Shown here: one piece after another, positions 4,429-34,865 of the stretch | How positions within the stretch are numbered: position 1 is the first letter of the stretch | How the letters are laid out: each line of letters opens with the position of its first letter | Origin: Dehalococcoidia bacterium | GTDB lineage: Bacteria > Chloroflexota > Dehalococcoidia > UBA6926 | Assembly (NCBI GenBank): GCA_963666115.2 | Contig: CAXXET010000007.1 | Span: forward strand, 96,001 to 160,000 | DNA length: 64,000 bases | Direction: 5' to 3' | Translations under genes and position numbers: made by a program | The notes under the pieces: model-generated | Databases searched by the model: none | Told to the model about the DNA's origin: nothing | Seen by the model: only the letters and a program-made list of their open reading frames with translations

Positions 4429-6259
4429 ATGACTGACCAACATTCGCGGTTGGATGTCCTGAAGTCGCGTTTCGGGTACGACGATTTCCTCCCGCTCCAG
4501 TCTGAGATCATCGACAATGTCCTGTCGTCACGAGACTCGCTGGTTCTCATGCCCACCGGCGGTGGCAAGTCTCTCTGCTACCAGTTGCCTGCCCTGCTTC
4601 TCGGGGGAACGACGCTCGTCGTGTCGCCCCTGATAGCCCTCATGAAGGACCAGGTGGACGCGCTGAACGAGTCCGGCATCCCGGCGGGTTTCATCAACAG
4701 CTCACTGTCCGCCGCCGAATCGCGGCGAGTGGAAACACAGGTCCGGGAGGGGCGCATCAAGCTGCTCTATATCGCGCCTGAACGACTTGCGCTCCAGGGA
4801 TTCCGCAACGTCCTGCGCCAGTTGGACATCAGCCTGATTGCCATTGATGAGGCGCACTGCATATCGGAGTGGGGCCATGAGTTCCGCCCGGATTACCGCA
4901 ACCTGCGTCAACTGCGTGAGGAGTTCCCGTCAACGCCGGTCATCGCGCTGACCGCCACGGCGACAGAACGCGTTCGCGCCGACATCATCACCCAACTCGG
5001 CCTGCATGAAGGCGGCGTGTTCGTCTCCGGTTTCAATCGGGGCAACCTCCACGTACACCGTCCGGCCAAAGAGCGCCGCGTGGGAAGAACTCCTCGCCCT
5101 CCTCGAAAGCCACAAGGAGCAGCCCGCCATCATTTACTGCTTCTCCAGGCAGGAGACCGAGGACCTGGCCGCCGACCTGACTGACCGGGGCTTCGAGGCT
5201 CGTCCGTACCACGCCGGCCTTGACACTGAGACGCGCCGCAACACGCAGGACGATTTCCTGCGTGATCGCGTTCCTATCGTCGCAGCGACGATCGCGTTTG
5301 GCATGGGCATCGACAAGCCTGACGTCCGTCTGGTCGTCCACTACAGCATGCCAAAGTCGCTGGAGGGCTATTACCAGGAGACGGGGCGGGCAGGCAGAGA
5401 CGGGCTGCCCGCAGAATGTGTCCTCTTCTACGCGTTTGCGGACAAGGCCAGGCAAGACTACTTCATCAACCAAATAGCGGACGAAACAGAACAGCGCGTC
5501 GCGCGCGAGCAGTTGGCGCGAATGGTGGAGTTTGCCCAACTGACGACCTGCCGCCGCCAGTACGTCTTGCGCTACCTCGGAGAGGAATGGCCGGAGGAGA
5601 ACTGCGGCGGCTGCGACGTTTGCCTGAATCCCAGGGACGAATTCGACGCGACGGAGATTTCGCAGAAAGTCCTGTCGGCGGTCATTCGCACCGGAGAGAG
5701 GTTCGGGGCAGCCCACATCATCCGGGTGCTGCGTGGAGGGCGGGATAAGCGAATCCTGGAGATGCAGCACGATAAGCTGAGCGTCTACGGCATCGCGCAG
5801 AATTACGGCAGGCCGCAGCTACGGGAGATCATCGGACAACTGGAATCAAAGGGGCTACTGGCGAACGTCGGCGACAAGTACCCGGTCTTGGGAGTAACGG
5901 TGACAGGGCGTGAGTTCCTGCAGCAGAGACTGTCGATTTCCCTGTTTCGCCCACTGGACGATGGGACGGACCGCGTCGCCTCCCGTCACGGCCAATCGTC
6001 GCTGGATATGCCATTTGACAACGGACTCTTTGAAGAACTGCGCGCGCTGCGGCGGCGTTTGGCAGACGAAAGAGACGTGCCGGCATTCGTGGTCTTTGGC
6101 GATGCCTCCCTCAAGCAAATGGCCGCCCGCCTCCCCCAGACCACCGATGACTTCACCCGCATCTCAGGCGTAGGCACAACCAAGCTAAACCAATACGGCG
6201 CCGACTTCCTGGAGCTAATCCAAACCTACGTCAAGACGCACCGCAGGACGACTCCCTAG
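4429..6259 (+). CDS. recQ: DNA helicase RecQ (frameshift near 5050)
   Basis: MPTGGGKSLCYQLP, DEAHCISEWGHEFRPDY, YYQETGRAGRDG, CRR...NCGGCDVC zinc motif, RQC and HRDC domains. ORFs 4429-5184 and 5006-6259 join. Confidence 0.95.
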
Positions 6260-14724: not shown

Positions 14725-15747
14725 CTAACAGAACGGCAGGCCAAGCCGGCCAAAGTCGTTGGACTGCACATCTCGCAGGGTTGCCGGAACACACCCCTCC
14801 AATTGATTGCCGGCAAGGGTCAACCACGTCAGATTTGTCAGTTTGCCTAGTTCCACGGGTATTCCACCGCTTAAATCATTGTTGCTGAGCATCAAACCCA
14901 TCAGGTTGGTCAGGTTGCCCAGTCCCACGGGTATCTCGCCACTCAACTCGTTGTCTCCAAGAATGAGCCACTTTAAGTCTGTCAGGCTAGCCAGTTCTGC
15001 TGGTATCCCACCGCCCAACTCGTTGTCTGCGAGAAAGAAATATGTCAGTAATGTCAGGTTACCGAGTTCCGGTGGTATGCTGCCGCTCAGTTGGTTTCCG
15101 TCGAGACCCAACCCTGTCAACTCTATTAGATTGCCTAGCTCTGACGGTATCTCGCCGCTCAACTGATTGTTCGAGAGATACAAGGCCCTCAATGTAGTCA
15201 GATCGCCCAATTCCACTGGTATCTCACCATCCAGTTGGTTACCGCTGAGTATTATACCTGTCAGGTTGGGTAATCTACTCAGTTCCGTCGGTATGTCACC
15301 AGTCAACTGGTTCTTTGCAAGGTCCAAGACTGCCAAGTTGGGCAGGTTACTCAACTCCGTCGGTATTCTGCCGAATAACTGGTTTTCTTGGAGAGCTAAA
15401 AAGTCCAGGTGGCTCAATTCCCCTAGTTTGGCTGGTATCCTGCCGTTCAATTCATTTTCCATGAGGATCAATGCCGTGACACGCCCCTTGTCATTGGCGA
15501 CCACACCATACCACTCATTAGGAGGCGCATCAGTTAGCCAGTTGTCTTTGCGGCTCCAGTTGTCTCCGTTCGTCGAGTAATAGAACTCCTCCAGTATGTC
15601 TCTGTCCCTGTCATCTATAGGTATCAGGTTAGGTGTAGGTTCAGGCGTAGCCGTCGAACGCGGAACGCCGCAGGCCATCAGCGCGGTCGAAAGTACCAGT
15701 GCCAAAATCAGCAGGAGCACCCGCCTATAAGTGGTTTCTAACGCCAT
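14725..15747 (-). CDS. Plant-type leucine-rich-repeat lipoprotein
   Basis: Lipobox LMAC, a cap region (FYYSTNGDNW...WYGV) and ten 24-aa LxLxxNxLxGxIPxELxxL repeats; lower GC than neighbours. Confidence 0.9.
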   Translation of the reverse strand: MALETTYRRVLLLILALVLSTALMACGVPRSTATPEPTPNLIPIDDRDRDILEEFYYSTNGDNWSRKDNWLTDAPPNEWYGVVANDKGRVTALILMENELNGRIPAKLGELSHLDFLALQENQLFGRIPTELSNLPNLAVLDLAKNQLTGDIPTELSRLPNLTGIILSGNQLDGEIPVELGDLTTLRALYLSNNQLSGEIPSELGNLIELTGLGLDGNQLSGSIPPELGNLTLLTYFFLADNELGGGIPAELASLTDLKWLILGDNELSGEIPVGLGNLTNLMGLMLSNNDLSGGIPVELGKLTNLTWLTLAGNQLEGCVPATLRDVQSNDFGRLGLPFC

Positions 15748-21283: not shown

Positions 21284-22339
21284 ATGGCGCTTGCGTACAC
21301 ACTCGGATTGCGCGCCCTCAGCCTCGTGGGCGTGGTGTTCGTTGTCCTTCTGCTCGTTGTCGTGACGCTTGGCGCGACGGGATTCTCCGACCGCATGTTG
21401 ACCGCCATCGTCTCGGAAGAGATGCGCGGGACACGCCAGGCCCTGGCAGAAACGATCAAAGACCCGGAGCGGCTCGAAGAGACCCTGCGGGAGCGGCGCG
21501 CGGAACTCGAAGAGTTCTACGGACTTGACCGCCCCTGGTACACGCGGCTGCCCGGCATGGTCGGGCGAGTCCTGACCCTTGACCTCGGCTCCGCGCGCAA
21601 CCTGCGGAGTTTCGACGGCTCGTCGCGCGTCACGGACATCGTCCTGGAGCGCGTGCCGTATTCGATCATGCTGGTAACGACGTCGCTCGTCATCACGGCC
21701 ATCATCGGCTTATGGCTCGGCGCAAAACTGGCGACGCGCGTGGGCACACGGAGCGACCGCCTCGCATCCTACCTCGCCGCCGCGTCGAACGCCCTGCCCG
21801 CGTGGTGGGCGGGCATCCTGCTCATCCTCGTCCTCTCGTTCCAACTGCGGATATTCCCCTCCGGCGGCTTATACAGTTCTCCACCGCCCGATGGCGGCCT
21901 GCTGCGGTTCATGGACCTGCTCTGGCACGCCGCGCTGCCCATCCTGACCCTCGTGCTGGTCTCCGTGGGCGCGTGGACGTACGTGGTGCGAACCATGCTC
22001 CTGAACACCGCGCAGGAGTTCCACGTGACGGCGGCCCGGGCGCGGGGGCTGCCGGAGGGACAGGTGATGCGGCGGCATATCCTGCGCGTGGCCGCACCGC
22101 CCATCGCCACGAATATCATCCTCGCCCTGACCGGCTCCATCGGCGGGGCAATCCTGACGGAGACGGTCTTCAACTGGCCGGGAATGGGGCGGCTGTATTT
22201 CGACGCCATCACGACGGCGGATGAGGCCGTCATCGTCGCGCTGACGTTCATGTTCACCCTGATGTACGTCGCGGCGCGGTTTGTGCTGGAGGTGCTGTAC
22301 GTGGTTCTTGACCCGCGCGTGAGGTATACGGCGCAATGA
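21284..22339 (+). CDS. Dipeptide/oligopeptide ABC permease (DppB/OppB-like)
   Basis: YGLDRPWY, the EAA-like motif TAARARGL and ETVFNWPGMG. Confidence 0.92.
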   Translation: MALAYTLGLRALSLVGVVFVVLLLVVVTLGATGFSDRMLTAIVSEEMRGTRQALAETIKDPERLEETLRERRAELEEFYGLDRPWYTRLPGMVGRVLTLDLGSARNLRSFDGSSRVTDIVLERVPYSIMLVTTSLVITAIIGLWLGAKLATRVGTRSDRLASYLAAASNALPAWWAGILLILVLSFQLRIFPSGGLYSSPPPDGGLLRFMDLLWHAALPILTLVLVSVGAWTYVVRTMLLNTAQEFHVTAARARGLPEGQVMRRHILRVAAPPIATNIILALTGSIGGAILTETVFNWPGMGRLYFDAITTADEAVIVALTFMFTLMYVAARFVLEVLYVVLDPRVRYTAQ

Positions 22340-23769
22340 GGCCCGGCGAGGCGCTGCGCGTCGTTCTCAAATCAGGCTCAGGGCGGCTGGGCATCGGCCT
22401 GCTGGCCGTCCTCGTCTTCGTCTCCATGCTCGTGCCGTTCTTCTACCCGCTGGATTTCGGCCTGCGGTTCTGGAACAACCCCATCGCCTGGGCGGACAAC
22501 CCGAAAGCCGCCCCGCCCGCCTGGACGAACCTCGTTGGCGACCAAGCCCCGCGCCATCGTGTCTTCGACGCCGAAACACCCACGCAGGAGATCCCGACCG
22601 GCCCGGCAACGACGCGCCTCTATTCCTTCACGTTCGACCATGAGTCTGAGTCGCCGCCCACATTCCTCTCCGTGTCCGTCGGCAAGGTCACGTTCCACGA
22701 CAGGCCGCCGGTAATCTCGATGACCCTTGCGCGGCCCGATGGACGCTCGGCAACGATCCTGCAAGAGGTCGTGCGCGGACAGCGTCCCGATGAAACTCCG
22801 CCCGTCACGCGGTTCGCAGATGAGCCCCGCCGCATCTACCTGACGGGAGATGCCAACGCGCTCACTGCGGCAACCGGCTTTCTGCAGCGTGAGTTCGACG
22901 TGCGCCTCACCGAAGCGGAGATGCAGGGCAACCTGGAGGCGGCGCTCTTCGGCGCGCCCGCGAACAGCGATGCCGCAGAATTCACGCCGTTGACGGGTGA
23001 ATACACCGCAACGATCCGCGTCGTCACCTATGATCCGCGCGACTCGGTGGAGAGCGTGCGCTTCGTGGCGGCAGGCGGCGTGTTCGGGTTGATGGGAACG
23101 GACACGCAGGGGCGCAACCTTGCGACGGGGCTGCTGTTCGGGTTCCCCGTCGCGCTCATCATCGGCATATTAACAAGCGTGGCCGCCACCATCCTCGGCA
23201 CGTTCTTCGGCATCCTCAGCGGCTTCTCCGGCGGCAGGACGGACACCATCATCCAGCGGCTGTCCGACGTGATGACGAACATCCCGCTGCTGCCCATCCT
23301 CATCTTCCTCATCTTCGTTCTCGGCCAGAAACTCTGGCTGGTGATGACGATTCTCGTGATATTCGGCTGGCCCGGGCTGACCATCATCCTCCGCTCGATG
23401 GTGCTGCAAGTGCGCTCGGGGCAGTTGGTGGAGGCGACGCAGGCCCTCGGAGCGTCGCGGTGGCGCATCATGTTCCGGCACGTCTTCTTCCAGATGGCGC
23501 CGTTCATCGTCGCGCAGATGATCTTCTTCACGCCGGCGGCCATTCTCGCTGAGGCGGGGCTGAGCTTCCTGGGCCTCGGCGACCCGTCCCTGCCGACGTG
23601 GGGACAGATCCTCGAGCAGGGATTCCGCACCGGCGCAATCTTCATCGGCTACTGGTGGTGGATACTGCCGCCCGGCATCCTCATCGTGATCACCGCCATG
23701 ACGTTCGTGCTATTGGCGCTGGCAATGGAGCCGGTTCTTAATCCGCGCCTCCGGGAGACGGCGGCATGA
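22336..23769 (+). CDS. Dipeptide/oligopeptide ABC permease (DppC-like) with a large extracytoplasmic insertion
   Basis: W.DNPKAAPPAW, MGTDTQGR, EATQALGAS and EAGLSFLGLGDP..PTWG. Confidence 0.9.
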   Translation: MRPGEALRVVLKSGSGRLGIGLLAVLVFVSMLVPFFYPLDFGLRFWNNPIAWADNPKAAPPAWTNLVGDQAPRHRVFDAETPTQEIPTGPATTRLYSFTFDHESESPPTFLSVSVGKVTFHDRPPVISMTLARPDGRSATILQEVVRGQRPDETPPVTRFADEPRRIYLTGDANALTAATGFLQREFDVRLTEAEMQGNLEAALFGAPANSDAAEFTPLTGEYTATIRVVTYDPRDSVESVRFVAAGGVFGLMGTDTQGRNLATGLLFGFPVALIIGILTSVAATILGTFFGILSGFSGGRTDTIIQRLSDVMTNIPLLPILIFLIFVLGQKLWLVMTILVIFGWPGLTIILRSMVLQVRSGQLVEATQALGASRWRIMFRHVFFQMAPFIVAQMIFFTPAAILAEAGLSFLGLGDPSLPTWGQILEQGFRTGAIFIGYWWWILPPGILIVITAMTFVLLALAMEPVLNPRLRETAA

Positions 23770-24749
23770 CGAACCACAATACGCCCCTGCTCTCCGTCCG
23801 CGAGCTGCGCCTGTCCTACGCAGCCGACCGCGGCGACGTGCGTGCCGTGGACGGGGTGTCGTTCGATTTGGAGCAGGGCAAAACGCTGGCCATCGTCGGC
23901 GAGTCCGGCTCCGGCAAGACCAGCCTCGCGCTCGCCCTGCTCCGCCTCCTCCCCCGCAACACCTCCAAGTTTGAAGGACAGGTCACGCTCAACGGCATGG
24001 ACTGCATGGCGCTGTCCGACGGCGACTTTCGAAGCCGCGTGCGCTGGCGGCAGATTTCAATGGTCTTCCAGGGCGCGACGGAATCGCTCAACCCGATCTA
24101 CAAGGTGGGGCATCAGGTTCGGGAAATCTTAACATCCCGCGGCGGCCAATCACGCGACGCGGCGGACGAGCGCGCGCGCGAGCTGCTGGACATGGTGCGG
24201 CTGCCGCCGGAGACGTTCAACCGCTACCCGCATGAACTGAGCGGCGGCATGAAGCAGCGCATCGCCGTCGCCTCCGCGCTCGCGCTCGATCCCACGCTGA
24301 TCCTGCTGGACGAGCCAACGTCCGCGCTTGACGTGGGCGTGCAGGCGCAGATCATGAACCTGTTCAAGCGGCTCAAGTCGAACCTCGGCATCGCGTCCGT
24401 CTTCATCAGCCACGACATCGCACTCGCAAGCGACCTGGCCGACTACATCGGCGTGATGTACGCGGGGCGGCTTGTGGAGATCGGCCCGTCGGAGGATATT
24501 CTCGGCGCGCCGTCCCACCCCTACACGCAGAAGCTGCTGGCCGCCATCCCTCGTCTCCGTTCGGACGACCCGCTGGAGTTCATTCCGGGCGCGCCTCCCG
24601 ATCTGTCCGACCCGCCAACGGGCTGCCGGTTCCACCCCCGCTGCCAATTCGCAATGGACAGGTGCCGCACTGAGGACCCGGGCAGCTTTGCGACGCCAAG
24701 CGGCCGGTCGACGGCAGCATGTTGGCTCCTGGATGAGGCGGCGTCATGA
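23766..24749 (+). CDS. Oligopeptide ABC ATP-binding protein (DppD-like)
   Basis: GESGSGKT, YPHELSGGMKQR, DEPTSALD and GCRFHPRC. Confidence 0.95.
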   Translation: MTNHNTPLLSVRELRLSYAADRGDVRAVDGVSFDLEQGKTLAIVGESGSGKTSLALALLRLLPRNTSKFEGQVTLNGMDCMALSDGDFRSRVRWRQISMVFQGATESLNPIYKVGHQVREILTSRGGQSRDAADERARELLDMVRLPPETFNRYPHELSGGMKQRIAVASALALDPTLILLDEPTSALDVGVQAQIMNLFKRLKSNLGIASVFISHDIALASDLADYIGVMYAGRLVEIGPSEDILGAPSHPYTQKLLAAIPRLRSDDPLEFIPGAPPDLSDPPTGCRFHPRCQFAMDRCRTEDPGSFATPSGRSTAACWLLDEAAS

Positions 24750-25768
24750 CGACTGGGCAAATCATCACCGCTGCGGACGCAACGAACCCGGCGCCGATGC
24801 TGGAACTGCGGGACGTGGCGATGCACTTCAAGTCACGCGGACGCGGATTCCGCACGACGACGGTGCGGGCATTGGATGGCGTTTCCCTAACGCTGGATCG
24901 CGGCGAGACCATCGCCATCGTGGGCGAGTCCGGCTGCGGCAAGACAACGTTGGGGCGCGTCTCACTGCGTCTATTGGAACCGACGGCTGGGCGTGTGCTC
25001 TTCAACAACCAGGACATCACTGAGTTCAAAGATGGCCAGCTTAAAGAGTTTAGGCGGCGGGCGCAGGGCATCTTCCAGGACCCGTTCACGAGCCTCGATC
25101 CCTACATGACCATCCGCCAGATCGTTGAGGAGCCGCTCGTCATCCATGGCGAGGGGTCGCCCTCCGAGCGGCTGGAGCGCGTGGAATGGGCGCTGGACGA
25201 AGTGCGGATACGGCCGGCGTCAGATTTCCTCGACCGCTTCCCCCACTTATTGTCAGGCGGCCAGCGTCAGCGTGTCGGCATCGCGCGGGCATTGACCCTG
25301 ACGCCTGAGTACATCCTTGCCGATGAACCCGTCTCCATGATCGACGCCTCAAGCCGCGCTGAGATACTCGCGCTGCTGCGCGAACTGCAAGAGCGGCATC
25401 GCATCGGCTATCTCTACATCACGCATGACATCGCGACGGCGCGGCGCTTCGCGCCGACTGCCGCCGTCATGTACCTGGGACGCGTCGTCGAACAGGGCCC
25501 AACGGCGCAACTGATCAGCAACCCTCTCCACCCCTACACGCAAGGGCTACTGGACGCGGTGCCGGAGCCTGACCCGTCGAACCGTCTCGCGGAGCGCCCC
25601 GTCCTCCCCGGCGAAGCCCCAAGCCCCGCCAACGTCCCAACCGGCTGCCGCTTCCACCCCCGCTGCCCCGCATTCATATCCGGCCTCTGCGACACCACCC
25701 CGCCGCCGCTGGTAGAGATAGAACCCAACCGAACCGTGGAATGCCACCTCTACGGCGAAACCGTTTGA
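24746..25768 (+). CDS. Oligopeptide ABC ATP-binding protein (DppF-like)
   Basis: GESGCGKT, LSGGQRQR, ADEPVSMID and GCRFHPRC. Confidence 0.95.
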   Translation: MTTGQIITAADATNPAPMLELRDVAMHFKSRGRGFRTTTVRALDGVSLTLDRGETIAIVGESGCGKTTLGRVSLRLLEPTAGRVLFNNQDITEFKDGQLKEFRRRAQGIFQDPFTSLDPYMTIRQIVEEPLVIHGEGSPSERLERVEWALDEVRIRPASDFLDRFPHLLSGGQRQRVGIARALTLTPEYILADEPVSMIDASSRAEILALLRELQERHRIGYLYITHDIATARRFAPTAAVMYLGRVVEQGPTAQLISNPLHPYTQGLLDAVPEPDPSNRLAERPVLPGEAPSPANVPTGCRFHPRCPAFISGLCDTTPPPLVEIEPNRTVECHLYGETV

Positions 25769-25793
25769 CGCTCCGCCCCCCGCTCGGCATAAT
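25765..25793 (+). promoter_or_regulatory. Promoter of the tRNA cluster, TTGACG-17-CATAAT
   Basis: Consensus hexamers with a 17-bp spacer just upstream of tRNA-Trp. Confidence 0.65.
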
Positions 25794-25809
25794 TGCGTGG
25801 CGTATGTGC

Positions 25810-25886
25810 AGGAGCGTAGCTCAGTCCGGAAGAGCAACGGTCTCCAAAACCGTCGGTCGGGGGTTCGAATCCCTCCGCTCCTGCCA
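25810..25886 (+). tRNA. tRNA-Trp(CCA)
   Basis: Acceptor AGGAGCG/CGCTCCT, anticodon arm ACGGT-CTCCAAA-ACCGT, GGTTCGAATCC and CCA end. Confidence 0.96.
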
Positions 25887-25966
25887 ACGCGCTCCGGCGT
25901 GAGAGCCCAAAAGGCTCAAATCGTTGTCACAGGGCCAGACGCGCCCGCGCAGGCGGGCGATCAGAT

Positions 25967-26053
25967 GCCGAGGTGGTGGAATTGGTAGACACGCTGTCTT
26001 GAGGGGGCAGTGGGCGAAAGCTCGTAGGAGTTCAAATCTCCTCCTCGGCACCA
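25967..26053 (+). tRNA. tRNA-Leu(GAG)
   Basis: Acceptor GCCGAGG/CCTCGGC, anticodon arm CTGTC-TTGAGGG-GGCAG, long variable arm and CCA. Confidence 0.96.
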
Positions 26054-26115
26054 CCCTCTGGACAACGACGCCACGATTGGTACTCTGTCAGTGACACGGC
26101 ATCAGCCGGAACCGG

Positions 26116-26192
26116 GGCGACGTAGCCAAGTGGTTTAAGGCGGGGGACTGCAAATCCCCTATTCGTGGGTTCGAATCCCGCCGTCGCCTCCA
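26116..26192 (+). tRNA. tRNA-Cys(GCA)
   Basis: Acceptor GGCGACG/CGTCGCC, anticodon arm GGGGA-CTGCAAA-TCCCC, U discriminator and CCA. Confidence 0.96.
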
Positions 26193-26193
26193 T

Positions 26194-28524
26194 TCACACC
26201 AGTTCAGCCTCCTCCAACCTCAAAAACCCCTGCGCATCCAACGAAAGGCTCCTCACGCGCTCGGACACCAGGATGTAGTCATTCCCAAAGTACAGCGGAA
26301 ACGCCACGGCCTCCTCGATCATCTGGCGCTCGATCTCCCGGTACTGCTCCAGCCGGTCCTCTCCGGCGATCCTGGCCTCCTCCAGCAGCTCATCAATCTC
26401 CTCCGAGCCCGCCTTGCCGTCATTGTGCGGCGACTCCGTATGGAAGAGAACATCCAGGAAATTGTGCGGATCGGGGTAGTCCGCCAGCCACCCGTAGCTA
26501 TAGATGTTGTAGCCGGCCTCGATCACGGCAGGCAGCTGGTAGAAGTACGCGCGCCCAATGGCCCGATACTGGATGCGGACGCCCAGATTGTCCTCCCATT
26601 GAGTGAAGATGGCGCGGTAGATCTCTCCCACGTCGCCTGAACCTGCGACGAAGATTGTCGGCTGCTCATCGCCAAGTTTGCCGAAGTCTGTGCTGTCCAG
26701 CAGCGCCCTTGCCGCCCCCGGATCGTACCTGACGTCCTCGATGTCCTCGTCATAGCCGGGCAGGCCGGGCGGCATGAATCCGTGCGCAACCTTGACGCCT
26801 GAAGCGGCAAGCTCCTCAAAGATCGCCTCCCGGTCCACCGCCCACAGGAACGCGCGCCGCACGTCCGGGTCATCGAACGGCTCTACTGTCGTGTTGAAGG
26901 CCAGGTACTGGACGCTCAGGGCGTCCGTCTGCGTGATCTGGTCGACCAGCGGGCTTTCCTCCTCGACAAGAAAATCGTAATCTCCCGCCCCGATCCAGGT
27001 GGTTGCGTCAACAAATCCCTCTTCGACCATCGCCGTGGCCAGTCCCGCATGGAAGCGAAACACCAGGTTGCCGATGGCGTGCTGTGGGCCCGTATAGTCC
27101 TCGAACGCGGTCAGGTGCGCCGCCCGGGATCGCTGGAACTCGGCAAGCCGGTACGGCCCGGTTCCAATAGCTGTGTAGTACCACGGATCAGGGATGTCTT
27201 CCTCTTCCGCATCGTCGGACTGCTCATCCGACGACGATTCCTCATCATCGCCCGTCTCGTCCTCCTCCACGAGGCGAGGGTCCGGAACCTCCGGCACGTT
27301 GGATTGCAGCACCACGTAGGCGGACGGATGCGTCAGCTTGGAGAGGAAATAGCTCTTGGCCTCGTCGATGGTAACGACCAGCGTTGAATCGTCCACGGCC
27401 TCCAGTCCGGTCACCGAGTCGGCCTTGCCCGTGTGATACTCCTTCGCGCCGACGATGTCGTCCAGGTAGCTGCCCGCGCTCCCGCCGACGGGCGGCAGGT
27501 TGTGGTTCAGCGCGCGTTCCCATGAGAAGACGAAGTCTTGCGCCGTAACGGGCGTGCCGTCATGGAACTGCGCCCCGGCCTTGATGGTGAACCTGTAGAC
27601 GGTTCCGTCTTCCGACACGTCCCATATGGCCAGGTCAGGCTCAGGGATCAGATCCTCGTTGAGACGAACAAGGCCGCTAAATATCTGCCGGATGTACTGC
27701 GACGAGCCGGCGTCCGTGGATATGCCCGGGTCGAGCGTCAGTGGGCCCTGGTCGAGGTAGAGGACGAGGGTGTCGTCCCGCGGTGCGCCAAAGGGCTGCG
27801 GATCAACGGGGCGGATGCTGGTGGAAACCGCCTCCATCACGTCGAAATTGCGCTCATAGATGGTGCGCGGCGCCTCTGTCTGGATGCCCATGGCCATTGT
27901 TCCGCGAGCGACAAAGGTAACGGCGCCGCGGTATTCGTTGGAACCGGTGCCGTAGCTGTAGAAGACCTGGTGGGCTTCCGAGCCGTCGTCCAGGATGATG
28001 TCGGCCTCCGTAATCGTGCGGAACCCGCTCAGGCCGGCAAGCGGCGTGATCTGCTCCTGCGCGATGTCGGCCGGGTGCGCCTCCTCGGCGCGGAAGAGGA
28101 CGAAGGTCTGGGCGGTTATATCCTCATCACCCGTCTCAAACACAAGGGCAGCGCTCAGGAGGCCGGCCTGCGGGCGCGTGGTCGTCCACGCCTCCGGAAC
28201 CTCAAGCGCATAGCCGTACAGCTTGTCCGTGTAGGTTTTCAGGTCGGACGGAATGAGTGCTTGCGTTTCGTCCTCGTCATCCGTTTCAGTCGGTATGGCA
28301 GTTGCAGTCGGTGGATCGGTGATCGGCACGGGGGTAGCGGGGGGAGCAGAGGTGGGGAATATCACAGGCGTCGCAGACGGTGTTGGCGTCGCCGGTTCAA
28401 CCGGCGCCGGCGTGGAGGCGTCCTCGTCCCCGCAGGCCGCGGCAAGAAGCGCGAGGACAAGGGCGAGGGTGAACGCGAGGATCAGCGAACGCGGCGCGCT
28501 CCGGCTGCCAAAGATGTGTGACAC
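26194..28524 (-). CDS. Family-5 (OppA-like) solute-binding lipoprotein with an extra N-terminal PsbP/DcrB-like domain
   Basis: Lipobox LAAAC, Pro/Thr linker, YGYALEVPEAW domain, then TLDP, FHDGTPVTA.DF, GTGPY, PFDDPDVRRA and WLADYPDP. Confidence 0.88.
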   Translation of the reverse strand: MSHIFGSRSAPRSLILAFTLALVLALLAAACGDEDASTPAPVEPATPTPSATPVIFPTSAPPATPVPITDPPTATAIPTETDDEDETQALIPSDLKTYTDKLYGYALEVPEAWTTTRPQAGLLSAALVFETGDEDITAQTFVLFRAEEAHPADIAQEQITPLAGLSGFRTITEADIILDDGSEAHQVFYSYGTGSNEYRGAVTFVARGTMAMGIQTEAPRTIYERNFDVMEAVSTSIRPVDPQPFGAPRDDTLVLYLDQGPLTLDPGISTDAGSSQYIRQIFSGLVRLNEDLIPEPDLAIWDVSEDGTVYRFTIKAGAQFHDGTPVTAQDFVFSWERALNHNLPPVGGSAGSYLDDIVGAKEYHTGKADSVTGLEAVDDSTLVVTIDEAKSYFLSKLTHPSAYVVLQSNVPEVPDPRLVEEDETGDDEESSSDEQSDDAEEEDIPDPWYYTAIGTGPYRLAEFQRSRAAHLTAFEDYTGPQHAIGNLVFRFHAGLATAMVEEGFVDATTWIGAGDYDFLVEEESPLVDQITQTDALSVQYLAFNTTVEPFDDPDVRRAFLWAVDREAIFEELAASGVKVAHGFMPPGLPGYDEDIEDVRYDPGAARALLDSTDFGKLGDEQPTIFVAGSGDVGEIYRAIFTQWEDNLGVRIQYRAIGRAYFYQLPAVIEAGYNIYSYGWLADYPDPHNFLDVLFHTESPHNDGKAGSEEIDELLEEARIAGEDRLEQYREIERQMIEEAVAFPLYFGNDYILVSERVRSLSLDAQGFLRLEEAELV

Positions 28525-28635
28525 GTACTCAATCCTCCTGTGGACCGGATTTTCACCATGCGGGCGGCTTATGCGAAAGCGGCTTTGTCCCTATTATGAT
28601 ACGAGGCGGGAGAATCCCGCGGAGGTAGCAAGCAC

Positions 28636-31014
28636 ATGCGGCGGAATCCAGCTCGACTACTAGTACTAACGGCCATCATCGCCATCCTGTTAGCAGTCTC
28701 CCCGGCGTCCTTTGCCGGGGCGCAGGAGGGCGAGAGGCAAACGTCCGGCTCCCCCGGCATCCTCACGCCGGACTACCCCTACCTTGCGCCGGACGCGCTC
28801 GCCTTCCGGGACCAGGCCGCCCGCTACCTGTCCGGCCGCGTTTCGCTAATCGCGCAGGGGCTGGACGCGGACTCGGCAAGCATCGGCGGCGAGGGACAGA
28901 CCGGCCCCGTGGCATCCGCCCAGGGCGCGCCTGATTCGCAGGGCGGCGTCCTCGTCCCTTACCGCGACCCCTCCGCGCGTTTCAGCCGCAACATCCTCAT
29001 CCCCACGGACTTCAGCGCTGCTCCCATACAGACGGAGCCGCACCTGGCCGTCGACCCCCTTGATCCCGACCACATCGTCGCCGGCATGATCGACTACAAC
29101 TTCCCGGGCACCACCATGTACGTGACGTACGACGGCGGTGTGACGTGGGAGGGCCCGGCGGTGATCAAGCGACCCCGCGAAGAACTCGGCGCGGGCGGCG
29201 ACCCCGTTCTTGCGTTCGACCGTGAGGGTTCCATTTACAACACCTTCATCTCGCTGGACATCGAGGAGTTCACCGTCGGCAACCTGCTGGGATCGGCGGT
29301 CGTCTCCAGCATGGCGCTCAGTTCGTCTAGCGATGGCGGATTCACGTGGACGCAGGGCTCCCCGGCGGTCAGGAGCCAGGTGACCTCCGATTTCGAAATC
29401 GACTCGCTGGGACGCACGCGCGGCACCGTCTCCATCGGTTTCCTGGACAAGCCCTGGCTGGCCGTCGGCCCGAATCCCGATGAGCCGGAGTCGGACATCA
29501 TCTATATCTCCTACACCCACTTCAACACCACCTACCGCATCTCCTACACGGATGAGTTGGCCTTCCTCAGCAACCCCGTCCTCCAAACCACCATTGAGGT
29601 CGTCAGTTCAGAAGACGGCGGCATCAGCTGGTCTGATCCCGTCATCGTCAGCCCGACCATTCGCCAGGTCTTCGAGTTTGGCGGCTCGGAGCAGGTGACG
29701 ATTGAGGACAACCCCGGCTCCCTGCAATCGCCGGACGCAATCCCCGGCGGGCAGGTGATCGAGAGCCTCAAGCGCATCGTCCAGGGGTCGTACGTGGCGG
29801 CCCATGATGACGGAACCGTCTACGTGTCGTGGATGGACTCCTCCGACGACGGCCCGTTTGAAGGGCTGGCGCAGATGTACGTCGCCAAGTCCGAGGACGG
29901 CGGCGACACGTTCGCGGACGGACGGCAGGCCGCCAGCTTCCTGGAATTGGGCTTCTCCCCGCGAAGCAGCTTCTACCGTTTCTGGGGGTCGGCCTTCTCG
30001 CGCATAGCCATTGGGCCGAATGAGGAACTGTACGTGGTGTTTTCCGCCGCGCCCTCCGGCGACCCGTCCGATGACGCGGACGTCATGATGATCCGCTCGA
30101 TGGACGAGGGCCGCACGTGGAGCCGCCCCCCGCTGCGCGTCAACGACGACCGCACGTCCGGCATCCAGTTCTTCCCCGCCATCGACACCTCCCCCGACGG
30201 CAAGATCCACGTCATGTGGGCGGACACGCGGGACGATCCGGGAATCGACCTCCGCTACCACATCTACTACGCCGTCTCCGAGGACAACGGGGAATCGTTC
30301 AGCATCAACTCCCGCGTCACGGACTCCGCGTCCAACCCCAACTTCGGCTTCCCCGGCGGCCAGTTCATTGGCGACTACATGGGAATAGCCGCCACCGATG
30401 AGGACGTGTACCTCGTATGGCCTGACACCCGACTTGGCGAGTTCCAGGGCACGAACCAAAAGATCGGATTCGCCCGGATGCGCCAGATGCCCAGCCCGTC
30501 CATCTTCCTCTCACCCGCGCGCGGCGCATCCGCCACAACCGTCACAATCCAGGGGTTCAATTTCCAGGCTGACCAGGACATCTTCATCCTCGTCAGCGGC
30601 GTCCTCGTCTCCACCATCGAATCCAACGATGAGGGGCGCTTCACAACGCAGCTCTTCTTCCCCACCGCCGGCGAGGGCCCGCAGAGCGTCGCCGTTTTCG
30701 ACGCCTCCGGCAACTCCGCCACCGCGTCTTTCTACAACGAGTTCGGCTTCGATAACCTCCAGGAGACCGCCGAGCACATCGCGGAGATCAAGGCCGCGCT
30801 GAGTTCGGAGACGCTGACCGGCATCCAGGAGGCGTTGGAGCGCATCGAGGCCGGTGACACGGACGATGACGCCGGCGGCTGCACCACCGGCAACGCCACG
30901 GCGGACATGGCGCTGGTCGGCCTGATCGCCCTGGGCATCATCGGCGGCTTGCAGTTGAATGCGCGCAGACGCCGCCGCGCCAACAACGAGGACGGAGATG
31001 AATTCGATGCGTAA
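28636..31014 (+). CDS. Secreted BNR/Asp-box (sialidase-like beta-propeller) protein with an Ig-like domain and a C-terminal GGC-TM-RRR tail
   Basis: Signal peptide, six Asp-boxes (TYDGGVTW, SSDGGFTW, SEDGGISW, SEDGGDTF, SMDEGRTW, SEDNGESF), DKPW and GDYMG. Confidence 0.85.
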   Translation: MRRNPARLLVLTAIIAILLAVSPASFAGAQEGERQTSGSPGILTPDYPYLAPDALAFRDQAARYLSGRVSLIAQGLDADSASIGGEGQTGPVASAQGAPDSQGGVLVPYRDPSARFSRNILIPTDFSAAPIQTEPHLAVDPLDPDHIVAGMIDYNFPGTTMYVTYDGGVTWEGPAVIKRPREELGAGGDPVLAFDREGSIYNTFISLDIEEFTVGNLLGSAVVSSMALSSSSDGGFTWTQGSPAVRSQVTSDFEIDSLGRTRGTVSIGFLDKPWLAVGPNPDEPESDIIYISYTHFNTTYRISYTDELAFLSNPVLQTTIEVVSSEDGGISWSDPVIVSPTIRQVFEFGGSEQVTIEDNPGSLQSPDAIPGGQVIESLKRIVQGSYVAAHDDGTVYVSWMDSSDDGPFEGLAQMYVAKSEDGGDTFADGRQAASFLELGFSPRSSFYRFWGSAFSRIAIGPNEELYVVFSAAPSGDPSDDADVMMIRSMDEGRTWSRPPLRVNDDRTSGIQFFPAIDTSPDGKIHVMWADTRDDPGIDLRYHIYYAVSEDNGESFSINSRVTDSASNPNFGFPGGQFIGDYMGIAATDEDVYLVWPDTRLGEFQGTNQKIGFARMRQMPSPSIFLSPARGASATTVTIQGFNFQADQDIFILVSGVLVSTIESNDEGRFTTQLFFPTAGEGPQSVAVFDASGNSATASFYNEFGFDNLQETAEHIAEIKAALSSETLTGIQEALERIEAGDTDDDAGGCTTGNATADMALVGLIALGIIGGLQLNARRRRRANNEDGDEFDA

Positions 31015-33620
31015 GCTCATACTCGGCCTCACCCTCATCCTCGGCATCCTCGCCGGCAGCGGCGCGGCCCTCGCTCAAACCCCGGACGACTACACCCCCC
31101 CCCCACGCCCGCCCCGGCCCCGCCGTAGACACCCTCCACTACCGCTCCTTCAACGTCGATCTCGCCCCGCAGGAACTCCAGCGCGATGAGATGGACATGT
31201 ACATCTTCAACCTCAAGACGGACGCGGCGCAGGCCCTGCGCGGCGATGACTCCATCGAACTGTACGAAGCGCCCGCGTCCACCATCTCCCTCATCCTGAA
31301 CCCCGCCCCCGCCCCGGAAGGCCAGCTCAACCCCTTCTCCCTGCCGGAGGTGCGGCGCGCCGTCCAGCATCTCGTCAACCGCGAGTTCATCACGCAGGAA
31401 ATCTACAAGGGCCTCGCCCGCCCCATGCAGACCCACGTCAACCCGTTCGACTTCGATTACACCGTCGTTGCGGAGATGCTGGCGCGGCAAGACCTGTCCT
31501 ATGACCCGGGGCGCGCGCGCGCGGTTATCGCCCACGCCATGACGGAGGCGGGCGCGTCCATGGTGGACGGCGCGTGGAACTACAACGGCGAGCCGATCCG
31601 CCTCCGCTTCATCATCCGCGTGGAGGATGAGCGCCGCGAGGTGGGCGACCTGATCCGCGCCGAGTTGGAGCAGGCGGGATTCCTGATCGCCCCCGTCTAC
31701 CACCAGTTCGCCCCCGCCATCCTCACCGTCTACAGCACGGACCCGCAGCTCTTCGAATGGCACCTGTACACGGAGGGATGGGGGCGCGGCGCGGCGGAAC
31801 GATACGATTCCGCCACCATCAACCAGATGTCTGCCCCGTGGCTCGGCAACATGCCCGGCTGGCAGGAGACCGGCTTCTGGCAGTACGAAAACGCGCGCAT
31901 CGATGACCTCGGCCAGCGCATCTTCCGCGGCGATTTCCAAAACCGCGAGGAGCGCGACGCGCTCTACCGGGAGGTCACGCGCCTCTCCGTCGAAGAATCC
32001 GTCCGCGTCTGGCTCGCGACAATCCTGACCACGTTCCCCGCCAACGCCAACATCGTCGGCGTCACCCAGGACGTGGCGGCGGGCCCCAAGCTCCAGTGGA
32101 CGTTCCGCGAGGCGTACGCGCCGGGGCAGGACACCCTGACCGTCGGCCACCTGTGGGTCTGGACGGAGCGCAGCACGTGGAACCCCGTTTCCGGCTTCGG
32201 TGACGTCTACAGCAGCGACGTGTGGCGCAACCTGGCCGATCCCGCCATGACGCGCCACCCCTTCACCGGCCTGCCCATCCCCATGCGCGCCGGTTACCAG
32301 GTGGAGACGGCAGGCCCGGGCGGCAAGCTCTCCGTGCCGTCCACCGTCCAGCGTTGGGACGCGGACGCCGGGGAGTGGGCGAGCGTGGGCGATGGCGTGG
32401 AGGCCACGTCCAAGGTCACTTTCGACTACAGCAAGTTCTTCCAGGCCCCCTGGCATCACGGCCAACAGATCACGATGGCTGACCTTGTCTATGACATCTA
32501 CCAGACCTTTGACATGGTGTACGGGCCGGAGAAGTCCCAGGTCGAATTCGCCCTCGCAACAACCGCCAAGCCGCTGCTGGACACCGTCCGCGGCTTCCGC
32601 GTGCTGGATGAGAACCGCATCGAGGTCTACGTCGATTACTGGCACTTCGTGGACGACTACATCGCGGAGTACGCCGTGCCCGGCGGCATGACCATGCCGT
32701 GGGAGGTCCTCGCCGCGATGGACGACGTGGTATTCAACCAGCGCCGCGCCGCCTACAGCGACACCTCCGCCCAGCGGTTCGGCGTGCCGTGGCTCAGCCT
32801 GGTGCAGGACCGTGACGCCCGCACCGTTGACCGCGCGCTTGGGCAATTCGAGCGCGACGGCTTTGTGCCCATGGCGGCGCTCACCATCGGAGGGCAGGCG
32901 CTCGTCACGGAGCAGGAGGCCATGGAGCGCTACCGCGCCGCGCAGGCGTGGTTCGATGAGCAAGGCCTCATGGTCATCAGCAACGGGCCGTTCTACCTGG
33001 AGCGGTTCGATCCCCCCGCGCAGTTCGCCGAACTCAAGGCATTCCGCGATGAGAACTACCCCTTCAAGCCCGGCGATTGGCATTTCGGCGCGGCAGAGCC
33101 CATCAGCATTGAGACCGGAAGCCCCGGCAGCATCGTCATCGGCCAGGATTTCAGCGTCGGCTCAACGGTGAACGGCCCCGGTGAGCTGGGCGTCCGCTAC
33201 GTCTGGTCGGACCCCGCCACGGGCAACGTCGTCAAGAGCGGCGACGCGGAAATCGCGGAAAGCTTTCCCGTACAGGCCTTCGTCAACCTCTCCGCGTCGG
33301 AGACCGCCGCGCTCGTCCCCGGCCTCTACCGCCTCTCCATCACCGCCTACAGCGATCAACTCTCCACAGTCTCAGAACGCGTTTTGACGGTGGAGGCGTC
33401 CGCGACGGGCGATGGGACGGCGACGGGCGGAGCCCCGGACGACACCGCCACCACCACAAACCCCGATGATGCCACCGCCGACAGCGACGCCGACACCGGC
33501 GGCGGCTGCTTCGCAGGCGCCGCTACATCGGACCTGCTGCTGATCGGGGGACTTTTGCTGGGGCTGGTGGGGGTGCGTGTTAGGCGGAGGCAACTCGAAA
33601 ATGGAGAGGACGGTGAGTAG
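31007..33620 (+). CDS. Archaeal-type family-5 ABC solute-binding protein with a C-terminal GGGC-TM-RRR tail (frameshift in the poly-C run near 31095-31120)
   Basis: Sec signal peptide without a lipobox, LNPFSLPEVRRA, LYTEGW, WNPV.GF.D.YS, WHHGQ.ITMAD and ISNGPFYL. Confidence 0.85.
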
Positions 33621-33623
33621 AGG

Positions 33624-34865
33624 ATGACGACACAGAATGGGCCGGATCTTGGCTGGGTGCCCTTCTACGAGGAGTTTGCCAACAGGCTCAGGAAAGATTA
33701 CGGGCACGATACCAGGCAAGGAGAGTTAGTCCAGGCGGTTCGGGAAGCGTTGGCAGCCGTGAAGAGCGACGCTAGCGTCAACGAAGGTGCCACTTGCCCG
33801 TTCAGCGTGATGGCGTCATTCAATCGAGGGGTTTCGACTAGCAACGAGACTAGGAAGAAGATCTCGATCGCATTGAGGCATTCCCTGAGCGTTGGAGCAG
33901 ATTCACCTTCCAAATTTGACGGCATCCCTGTCGTCAACAGTCAGCAATGGCGGTTTTTTCCGTATACAAGCGAACCGGAACCGGGTGACATCGAATCCCT
34001 GTGGAAGGTCTTTCGAGACGCACTAGCGCTTGATAAGAATCCTGATGACGACGGTGCGAAGGCGGCATTTGCAGATTCGTTCAATGTCGCGCTCGGGGTC
34101 AAGAACAACGGCTTAAAGAAATTGACCATGGGTCTCTTTTGGATTCGGCCAAACACCTTTGTCGCGCTCGATGAGCCTAACCTCCTGTACATGGAGCGGC
34201 ACTTCCCGCACCCATTGGTTGGTAAGGCCAACAAGGCCAGCCAGAGCGGCAATAAGAGGGGTTTTACCGGTGACAACTATCTTGAACTCAACGACTATAT
34301 TCTCCGCAACCTAGAAGAGGCGAAAGAAGCCGGTTCGCGCGTGGCCAGCATTCCGTCGTTGTCGCATGCCGCATGGGTAAGTCGCAATCGGGACTTCGTT
34401 CAAACCGCGGTCGCGCAACTCTTTGAAGACTTAAGCGAGTTTGACCCAGCGATTGTGGAGGATGAGCTAGAAAGAAAGCTTTCGTCAATCGTCCCTCGCC
34501 CAGGCCAGAATAAGTTTCGTGAAAAACTCCTGAAGGCATACGGAGAACACTGCGCTATCACGGGTTACGATGCGGAGAAAGCACTGCAGGCAGCCCACAT
34601 TCGTCCATACAAGGGACGCAAAACCGATCGTGTTGATAATGGGCTGCTATTGCGCGCGGACATACATAACCTATTTGACGCATATCTACTCGGTATAGAT
34701 CCGGATACGGGAGATGTCTGGATTAGCAATGAGCTAAAGGATACGAAATACGCTGAGTTGGAGGGCAAGAAGGCACAGGTGCCGGAGAAACCTGCGCACA
34801 GGCCGAAAGCAGATGCATTGAGAGAGCGCTGGGAAAAAGCGCGGGAACTGGGTAGGTTCAATTGA
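33624..34865 (+). CDS. HNH endonuclease fused to an McrB-N-terminal-like domain (putative type IV restriction enzyme)
   Basis: C-terminal RPGQ.KFR..LL..Y...CAITG...L.AAHI.PY...NGLLLRADIH.LFD; N-terminal WVPFYEEFA...FDGIPV...LTMGLFWIRP; low GC. Confidence 0.8.
   Translation: MTTQNGPDLGWVPFYEEFANRLRKDYGHDTRQGELVQAVREALAAVKSDASVNEGATCPFSVMASFNRGVSTSNETRKKISIALRHSLSVGADSPSKFDGIPVVNSQQWRFFPYTSEPEPGDIESLWKVFRDALALDKNPDDDGAKAAFADSFNVALGVKNNGLKKLTMGLFWIRPNTFVALDEPNLLYMERHFPHPLVGKANKASQSGNKRGFTGDNYLELNDYILRNLEEAKEAGSRVASIPSLSHAAWVSRNRDFVQTAVAQLFEDLSEFDPAIVEDELERKLSSIVPRPGQNKFREKLLKAYGEHCAITGYDAEKALQAAHIRPYKGRKTDRVDNGLLLRADIHNLFDAYLLGIDPDTGDVWISNELKDTKYAELEGKKAQVPEKPAHRPKADALRERWEKARELGRFN

Follow-up and report, generated by a model that had tools for sequence, protein, structure and literature searches.

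Two adjacent genes in a 64,000-nucleotide stretch of a Dehalococcoidia bacterium from the phylum Chloroflexota (assembly GCA_963666115.2, contig CAXXET010000007.1, positions 96,001 to 160,000 of the forward strand; the window hereafter) encode unrelated exported proteins that end in the same cysteine-containing tail. Gene A encodes a BNR/Asp-box protein, and gene B a family 5 ATP-binding cassette (ABC) solute-binding protein (SBP). The tail is a module of a Gly/Ser-rich linker, one Cys, 5–15 residues, an Asp or Glu, about 14 hydrophobic residues, and an Arg cluster. Judged from sequence, it is best read as an unnamed Dehalococcoidia variant of the Cys-type C-terminal sorting signals and not as a separate kind. 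By a narrow balance of probability, it would act as an inverted lipoprotein signal, in which Sec export would be followed by transient anchoring through the helix and by Cys lipidation through Lgt or a similar enzyme, with the lipid as the lasting anchor.

The shared tail and its cysteine

A common tail on both genes had been predicted from the DNA alone, and it is confirmed at the places proposed. Aligned with each other, tails A and B share 15 identities, a score reached by none of 5000 composition-preserving shuffles, and the bodies of the two proteins show no mutual similarity. The tail Cys is the sole Cys of each open reading frame (ORF). The Arg cluster, originally described as the C-terminus, is followed in both tails by 8–11 mostly acidic residues, with 11 between cluster and stop in tail A and nine in tail B, whose end is acidic as well.

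Orthologues of both genes occur in all 22 genomes of the genus. As predicted, the Cys is conserved, namely in 21 of 22 orthologues for tail A and in 22 of 22 for tail B, and an Asp stands at position +8 from it in all 44 tails. Among these tails both TGC and TGT are used for the Cys, synonymous codon changes are found, and linker positions vary. Across 90 distinct tails, the Cys is preceded by Gly or Ser and in 87 cases followed by an acidic residue 6–16 positions later; Asp-Pro occurs in six, and a second Cys within seven residues in none. The mature body has no other Cys in 90 of 96 tail-bearing proteins.

The helix of the tail, measured as the uncharged hydrophobic run, is short. The median run in SBPs is 14 for Cys tails versus 22.5 for plain anchors, runs of at most 17 residues are found in 29/29 Cys tails versus 1/26 plain anchors, and the Asp-box medians are 14 versus 24; all of these are comparisons among related proteins, kin that are not independent, so that their significance is overstated. 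By membrane-insertion rules, a run of about 14 residues would make a weak permanent anchor. The lipobox h-regions of the source genome (G000; 2.07 Mb, 100% complete) have a median of 16, near the length of the Cys-tail helix.

At L117 (G060; positions 1009–1185), the Cys and the Arg cluster of the Asp-box tail lie unusually far apart, and the neighbouring SBP begins with a lipobox-like sequence and is tail-less.

Anchor exchange among SBP orthologues

The anchor of the SBP is exchangeable. Among 120 orthologues, 34 end in the Cys motif with helix, 43 in the Cys motif without helix, and 27 in a plain helix; seven carry an N-terminal lipobox and no tail, and nine have neither, one of them being truncated. 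Tail-less SBP loci comparable to these nine belong to Deinococcota and other lineages. A lipobox was found in none of the 104 orthologues with a tail or plain helix, and all seven lipobox SBPs are without a tail. A tree was calculated from 75 dereplicated bodies after removal of the tails, the first 45 residues, and one truncated row, and was midpoint-rooted. Lipobox forms appear at four places in it, and so do long Cys forms; its deep nodes are weakly supported, so that it gives no order of anchor events.

The 43 helix-less proteins end in a Cys motif with 2–12 further residues before the stop, and the form reads Gly-Gly-Phe-Ser-Cys-x-Gly-Pro-Pro and then the stop. These proteins form one clade of the tree (support 0.95), whose 23 dereplicated members have all retained the Cys. 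Readthrough or a frameshift into a helix was considered and rejected, as the stops are real at all 12 loci read and no helix is encoded in the other frames. In five of five genomes, the helix-less form occurs only on the SBP and once per genome; the long form is found alongside it only in G407, on the Asp-box and peptidase proteins. It is tentatively suggested that the Cys motif alone is a C-terminal lipoprotein signal. The helix-less form would then be the gene-encoded equivalent of a cleaved myxosortase product, lipidated without helix or sorting protease, and interchangeable with the N-terminal lipobox on the same transporter subunit.

A clade of plain-helix SBPs (L121, L125, L127, L129–L132, L136–L140, L142, L144, L175) has a conserved internal Cys pair, which likely forms a structural disulfide.

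Carriers across the Dehalococcoidia

Many non-homologous carriers with a strictly C-terminal tail had been expected, and related genomes bear this out. The source genome does not, as no third carrier was found there with a hidden Markov model (HMM) of the two tails run over 22,826 ORFs, with regular-expression scans, or with a 28-tail profile. Across 401 Dehalococcoidia genomes, the 28-tail profile matched in 28 and a subsequent 29-tail profile in 41; inspection or orthology identified true C-terminal Cys tails in 35 of these 41, and six were false (no Cys or non-C-terminal). With up to 19 candidates scored per genome, carrier counts are lower bounds, and the survey of peptidase orthologues found tails in genomes missed by the scan. 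True tails occur in about 15 families of the class.

G409 has five carriers, three of which match no Pfam family; the others are the SBP and a peptidase MA protein (PF13485). G165 has three unrelated carriers and G312 two. In every carrier of these three genomes, a signal peptide is combined with a stalk rich in Pro and Thr. A comparison that covered all carriers but L291 distinguishes at least six body types: Asp-box, SBP, peptidase MA, an immunoglobulin (Ig)-like/stalk type (L236, L244, L245, L283), the L252/L282 type, and L248. Marginal mutual similarity is seen only among the Ig/stalk types (E 0.005–0.05), and none below E 0.7 among the others.

In the peptidase family, 44 of 50 database matches end in the tail, a proportion biased by the query itself being tail-bearing. 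Orthologues matched in 187 genomes and 90 loci were fetched, of which 15 were unread by the motif filter, four were cut at contig ends, and 71 were complete orthologues spread over the class; 11 of these 71 bear the tail. The tail state of the peptidase is not that of the genome, as G086 and G248 bear the tail on other proteins. The peptidase MA proteins of family f22 (L341, L343–L346, L348) end in a repeat and not in a membrane anchor, which makes a fifth way of anchoring; this repeat is presumably dockerin-like, to go by its motif.

Among 80 loci compared, no tail was seen on the Asp-box and SBP orthologues from Caldilineaceae, Anaerolineae, Deinococcota, or archaea; no genome-wide search of other classes was made. 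A search of 1.84 billion representatives gave 19 matches, comprising own-family fragments, tails of JDVT- or MYXO-like appearance, and four long proteins, and the ESM Atlas gave a single, uninformative lead at 0.75.

In the sister genus, the SBP orthologue has the tail and the Asp-box orthologue a plain helix. Since tail A also aligns better with the sister-genus SBP tail (score 94, 19 identities) than with tail B (77, 15), it was probably acquired by copying an older SBP tail. Local duplication, named in the original prediction as an explanation that would undo it, thus applies to the A–B pair and not to the tail as such.

Relation to known C-terminal signals

MYXO-CTERM (TIGR03901) is the best-scoring model (13 of 28 tails at E ≤ 1). 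Its carriers, several unrelated ones per genome as here, have the same signal peptide, low-complexity stalk, Gly-rich motif with invariant Cys, helix, and Arg cluster. The present tail differs in its phylum, its 1–5 carriers found per genome, the acidic residue before the helix, the missing second Cys (0/90), the lack of an Mrt orthologue, and the existence of a helix-less form. As whole proteins, gene A (16.7), P0011 (18.4), and gene B (no match) miss the cut-off of 20 bits. As isolated pieces of tail A, 74 residues score 21.4 and 41 residues 19.1; because the longer piece passes the cut-off, the tail is assigned to the known Cys-CTERM kind. The predicted novelty therefore holds for a tripartite Cys tail of Chloroflexota (Dehalococcoidia) that stays below the whole-protein cut-offs of the MYXO-, JDVT-, Synerg-, and CGP-CTERM models, and is given up as regards a new kind of signal.

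By curated criterion, MYXO-CTERM is restricted to Myxococcota (accessible text of 10.1101/2023.06.07.544157), whereas this tail is found in Dehalococcoidia. The partners of MYXO-CTERM are given as the myxosortases MrtX, MrtC, and MrtP (10.1101/2023.06.07.544157; PMC11980579), and the CPBP proteins scanned here stay below the Mrt_core, MrtC, and MrtP cut-offs. In the accessible part of PMC11980579, Cys-dependent cleavage is shown and Lgt-like lipidation proposed for MYXO-CTERM, and the acyl-transferase for Cys-type signals is described as unidentified even in Myxococcus.

JDVT-CTERM (NF033191) shares the single Cys, an Asp about 8–12 residues later, the Leu-rich helix, and the few carriers. However, it carries an almost invariant Asp-Pro nine residues behind the Cys, in place of Asp-Met and Asp-Leu at +8 in the window tails, which score 7.4 and 12.2 against a cut-off of 27. 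It is also often adjoined by MrtJ (NF033192), which is not adjacent here. Synerg-CTERM (TIGR04564, MrtS) and CGP-CTERM (TIGR04288, MrtA) have the same Cys-containing tripartite design. The former has an invariant Pro in its Leu-rich helix, which is absent from the window helices, and matches one of 28 tails (E 0.58). The latter belongs to Thermococcales and has Gly-Pro directly after the Cys, unlike these tails, of which three of 28 match weakly; the Cys-x-Gly-Pro of the helix-less form is one residue off its Cys-Gly-Pro.

In GlyGly-CTERM, the Gly-Gly directly precedes the helix, whereas here about ten residues with the Cys and Asp lie between; no match to its model is listed for either window tail. 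The tails lack an LPXTG motif (TIGR01167 12.4 of 15.9, PF00746 16.5 of 20) and a PEP motif, and the exosortase PF09721 of PEP-CTERM systems was not found in G000. The N-terminal lipobox recognised by Lgt and LspA shares the Cys beside a short hydrophobic region with a basic end (h-region 16 versus 14), and replaces the tail in orthologous SBPs. In the tail, the order is inverted, the position is C-terminal, and Gly-Gly-Cys or Phe/Leu-Ser-Cys stands in place of a canonical lipobox.

NCBIfam release 20 has no model naming such a tail, and its 'lipo-invert' domain NF058595 gave no match above cut-off. None of the titles found in literature searches on Cys-CTERM signals, Chloroflexota sorting, the SAR202 envelope, and Lgt lipidation concerns this tail. 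The main text of 10.1101/2023.06.07.544157, in its accessible form, does not mention Chloroflex, Dehalococc, or SAR202, and its supplements could list further genomes.

Proposed mechanism and alternatives

Dehalococcoidia are regarded as monoderm. The lipoprotein reading builds on the conservation, modularity, and C-terminal position of the tail, its short helix and sole Cys, the mutual exclusion with the lipobox, and the helix-less clade. From these we infer export, topology, lipidation, and the identity of the enzyme. The carrier is predicted to be exported by Sec, and its short helix would then keep the Cys on the outer face of the membrane, with the Arg cluster inside. An acyl-transferase, possibly the housekeeping Lgt, would then attach a lipid to the Cys. 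Helix removal may be optional or left to a general protease, since no dedicated myxosortase-type enzyme tracks the tail.

Several observations weigh against this reading. Lgt normally requires a lipobox preceded by a hydrophobic region, and the helix-less form has no such region. Only two carrier proteins are present in G000, 87 of 120 Asp-box orthologues use a plain helix, and the kinship of the proteins in the helix-length comparison counts here as well. Leu replaces the Cys in the gene A orthologue of G001 (L021), and the motif Cys is absent from one peptidase tail (P0273); given these two losses, the Cys would not be strictly required when the helix remains. Even for MYXO-CTERM, lipidation is only proposed in the accessible text of PMC11980579. 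The P0273 tail has a Cys at the helix end in place of the motif Cys.

A disulfide tether is doubtful. The tail would then be an uncleaved, unlipidated anchor whose Cys forms a homodimer, an A–B heterodimer, or a link to an S-layer-like surface protein, with the helix-less form tethered through a partner of this sort. A lone extracellular, membrane-proximal Cys on both partners of one operon fits this idea, as do the need of the helix-less form for some tether and the replacement of the tail by plain helices in orthologues. However, at 15 complete helix-less loci those permeases that are present have no Cys and the Asp-box partner lacks Cys in 13, and the search of these loci for a dedicated disulfide partner found none. 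Only one of the two partners is tailed in genus g2 and other lineages, and the shortened helix and the exchange with the N-terminal lipobox would be left unexplained.

A myxosortase-type pathway, in which lipidation of the Cys would be followed by removal of the helix by a CPBP (Rce1-like) protease, is considered unlikely. Its attraction is that a CPBP partner has been proposed for each of the four Cys-CTERM signals described (accessible text of 10.1101/2023.06.07.544157). G000 encodes exactly one CPBP, with EExxxR and HxxxN motifs intact, beside trpA and on a different contig from the tail genes, and CPBPs are present in 9 of 10 other tail-bearing genomes searched. This CPBP scores 24.9 of 100 with Mrt_core, 37.7 of 75 with MrtJ, and 35.1 of 130 with MrtS, and all seven CPBPs scanned fall short of every Mrt cut-off, with top scores of 40.3 of 75 for MrtJ and 31.5 of 100 for Mrt_core, and at most 40 of 130 for MrtS. 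The trpA-adjacent type occurs in 213 of the 401 class genomes, a tally that includes one unpublished genome (G260) on which no other result depends, and was not detected in the tail-bearing G029, G312, and G276. It shows no enrichment with the tailed peptidase (7 of 11 genomes versus 38 of 60 with a tail-less peptidase). No CPBP was found in G406, which has the helix-less form, and none is among the listed neighbours of ten loci. A dedicated myxosortase is thus not supported, because the Mrt cut-offs are missed, the CPBP does not track the tail, and G406 has none; a housekeeping CPBP may have a general role in tail processing. The anticipated co-distributed CPBP or exosortase-type enzyme was likewise not found. 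The G000-type CPBP also lies beside trpA and chorismate mutase in G057, G165, and G409, and a CPBP beside a lone trpA and chorismate mutase is seen in four families (L031, L263, L264, L265).

Besides one Lgt and this CPBP, G000 has one sortase-family gene and one rhomboid (PF01694); exosortase and PrsW were not found in profile searches of this genome. Action of the sortase or rhomboid at the Gly-Gly motif, with the Cys being secondary, is very unlikely: Gly-Gly does precede the Cys in most tails, but the invariant column is the Cys and not the glycines, Gly runs also precede plain helices in orthologues, and neither an LPXTG motif nor a listed GlyGly-CTERM match was found. The sortase-family gene (C6:113714–114652, L429) adjoins a thioredoxin-like gene. 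Neutral copying of an ordinary anchor, with no special role of the Cys, is hardly credible and largely refuted: it accords with the two adjacent G000 carriers and the likely copying of tail A, but leaves the five unrelated G409 carriers, the peptidase family, and the helix-less clade unexplained.

Lipidation of the Cys in Cys-type C-terminal sorting signals is an open question according to the accessible text of PMC11980579. The SBPs offer a natural series on one scaffold, from N-terminal lipobox and plain helix to Cys with short helix and Cys without helix. This series allows the question to be put to a direct test in E. coli, and points to a lipid step that is separable from a myxosortase. 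The tail is also an annotation handle, as yet without an NCBIfam model, for surface proteins of SAR202-type Dehalococcoidia.

The locus

The features of the locus are listed in Table 1.

Table 1. Features of the tail-bearing locus, in window coordinates.
Feature	Position	Strand	Description
Dpp/Opp-type permease and ATPase genes	21284..25768	+	directly 3' of the Asp-box and SBP pair in relatives
Second family 5 SBP	26194..28524	-	ordinary N-terminal lipobox, no tail; contrast case
Gene A	28636..31014	+	exported BNR/Asp-box protein, 792 residues; signal peptide without lipobox; Cys tail
Tail A	30874..30978	+	Gly-Gly-Cys (Cys 30880-30882), 7 residues, Asp (30904-30906), hydrophobic helix, five Arg
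Gene B	31007..33620	+	family 5 ABC SBP (SBP_bac_5); signal peptide without lipobox; low-complexity stalk; Cys tail
C10 run, gene B frame change	31095..31104	+	probable assembly error
Tail B	33501..33590	+	Gly-Gly-Cys (Cys 33507-33509), 7 residues, Asp (33531-33533), 14-residue hydrophobic helix, Arg cluster

Gene A has a small Ig-like domain near residues 625–681. Both genes have signal peptides without a lipobox, as predicted, with the correction that in the present assembly the signal peptide of gene B (ATG 31007) is in a different frame from the body. The frame change in the C10 run is likely an assembly error, because the genus relatives compared read the orthologue in one uninterrupted frame. 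At the start of the SBP, PF00496 matches with the second half of the model only.

The description of the other exported proteins as N-terminal lipoproteins applies to the second SBP and to the protein at 14725..15747 (-), both with a lipobox; G000 has 37 lipobox candidates, but also several exported proteins with plain C-terminal helices. The second SBP lies divergent from gene A in several relatives as well.

The Dpp/Opp-type genes likely encode the cognate transporter of the gene B protein, given their place directly behind the pair in relatives; both window permeases lack Cys. The Asp-box protein, large SBP, and Dpp-type importer (21284–33620) form a module kept in Dehalococcoidia, Caldilineaceae, Deinococcota, and archaea. 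Directly 3' of the SBP lies an HNH endonuclease gene of lower GC content (33624–34865). As relatives have other genes there (a restriction-type pair in L128), the site looks like an insertion hotspot that separated the operon from its permeases. Further upstream in the window, a RecQ-type helicase (4429–6259) is divided between two frames, which may be another frameshift of the assembly.

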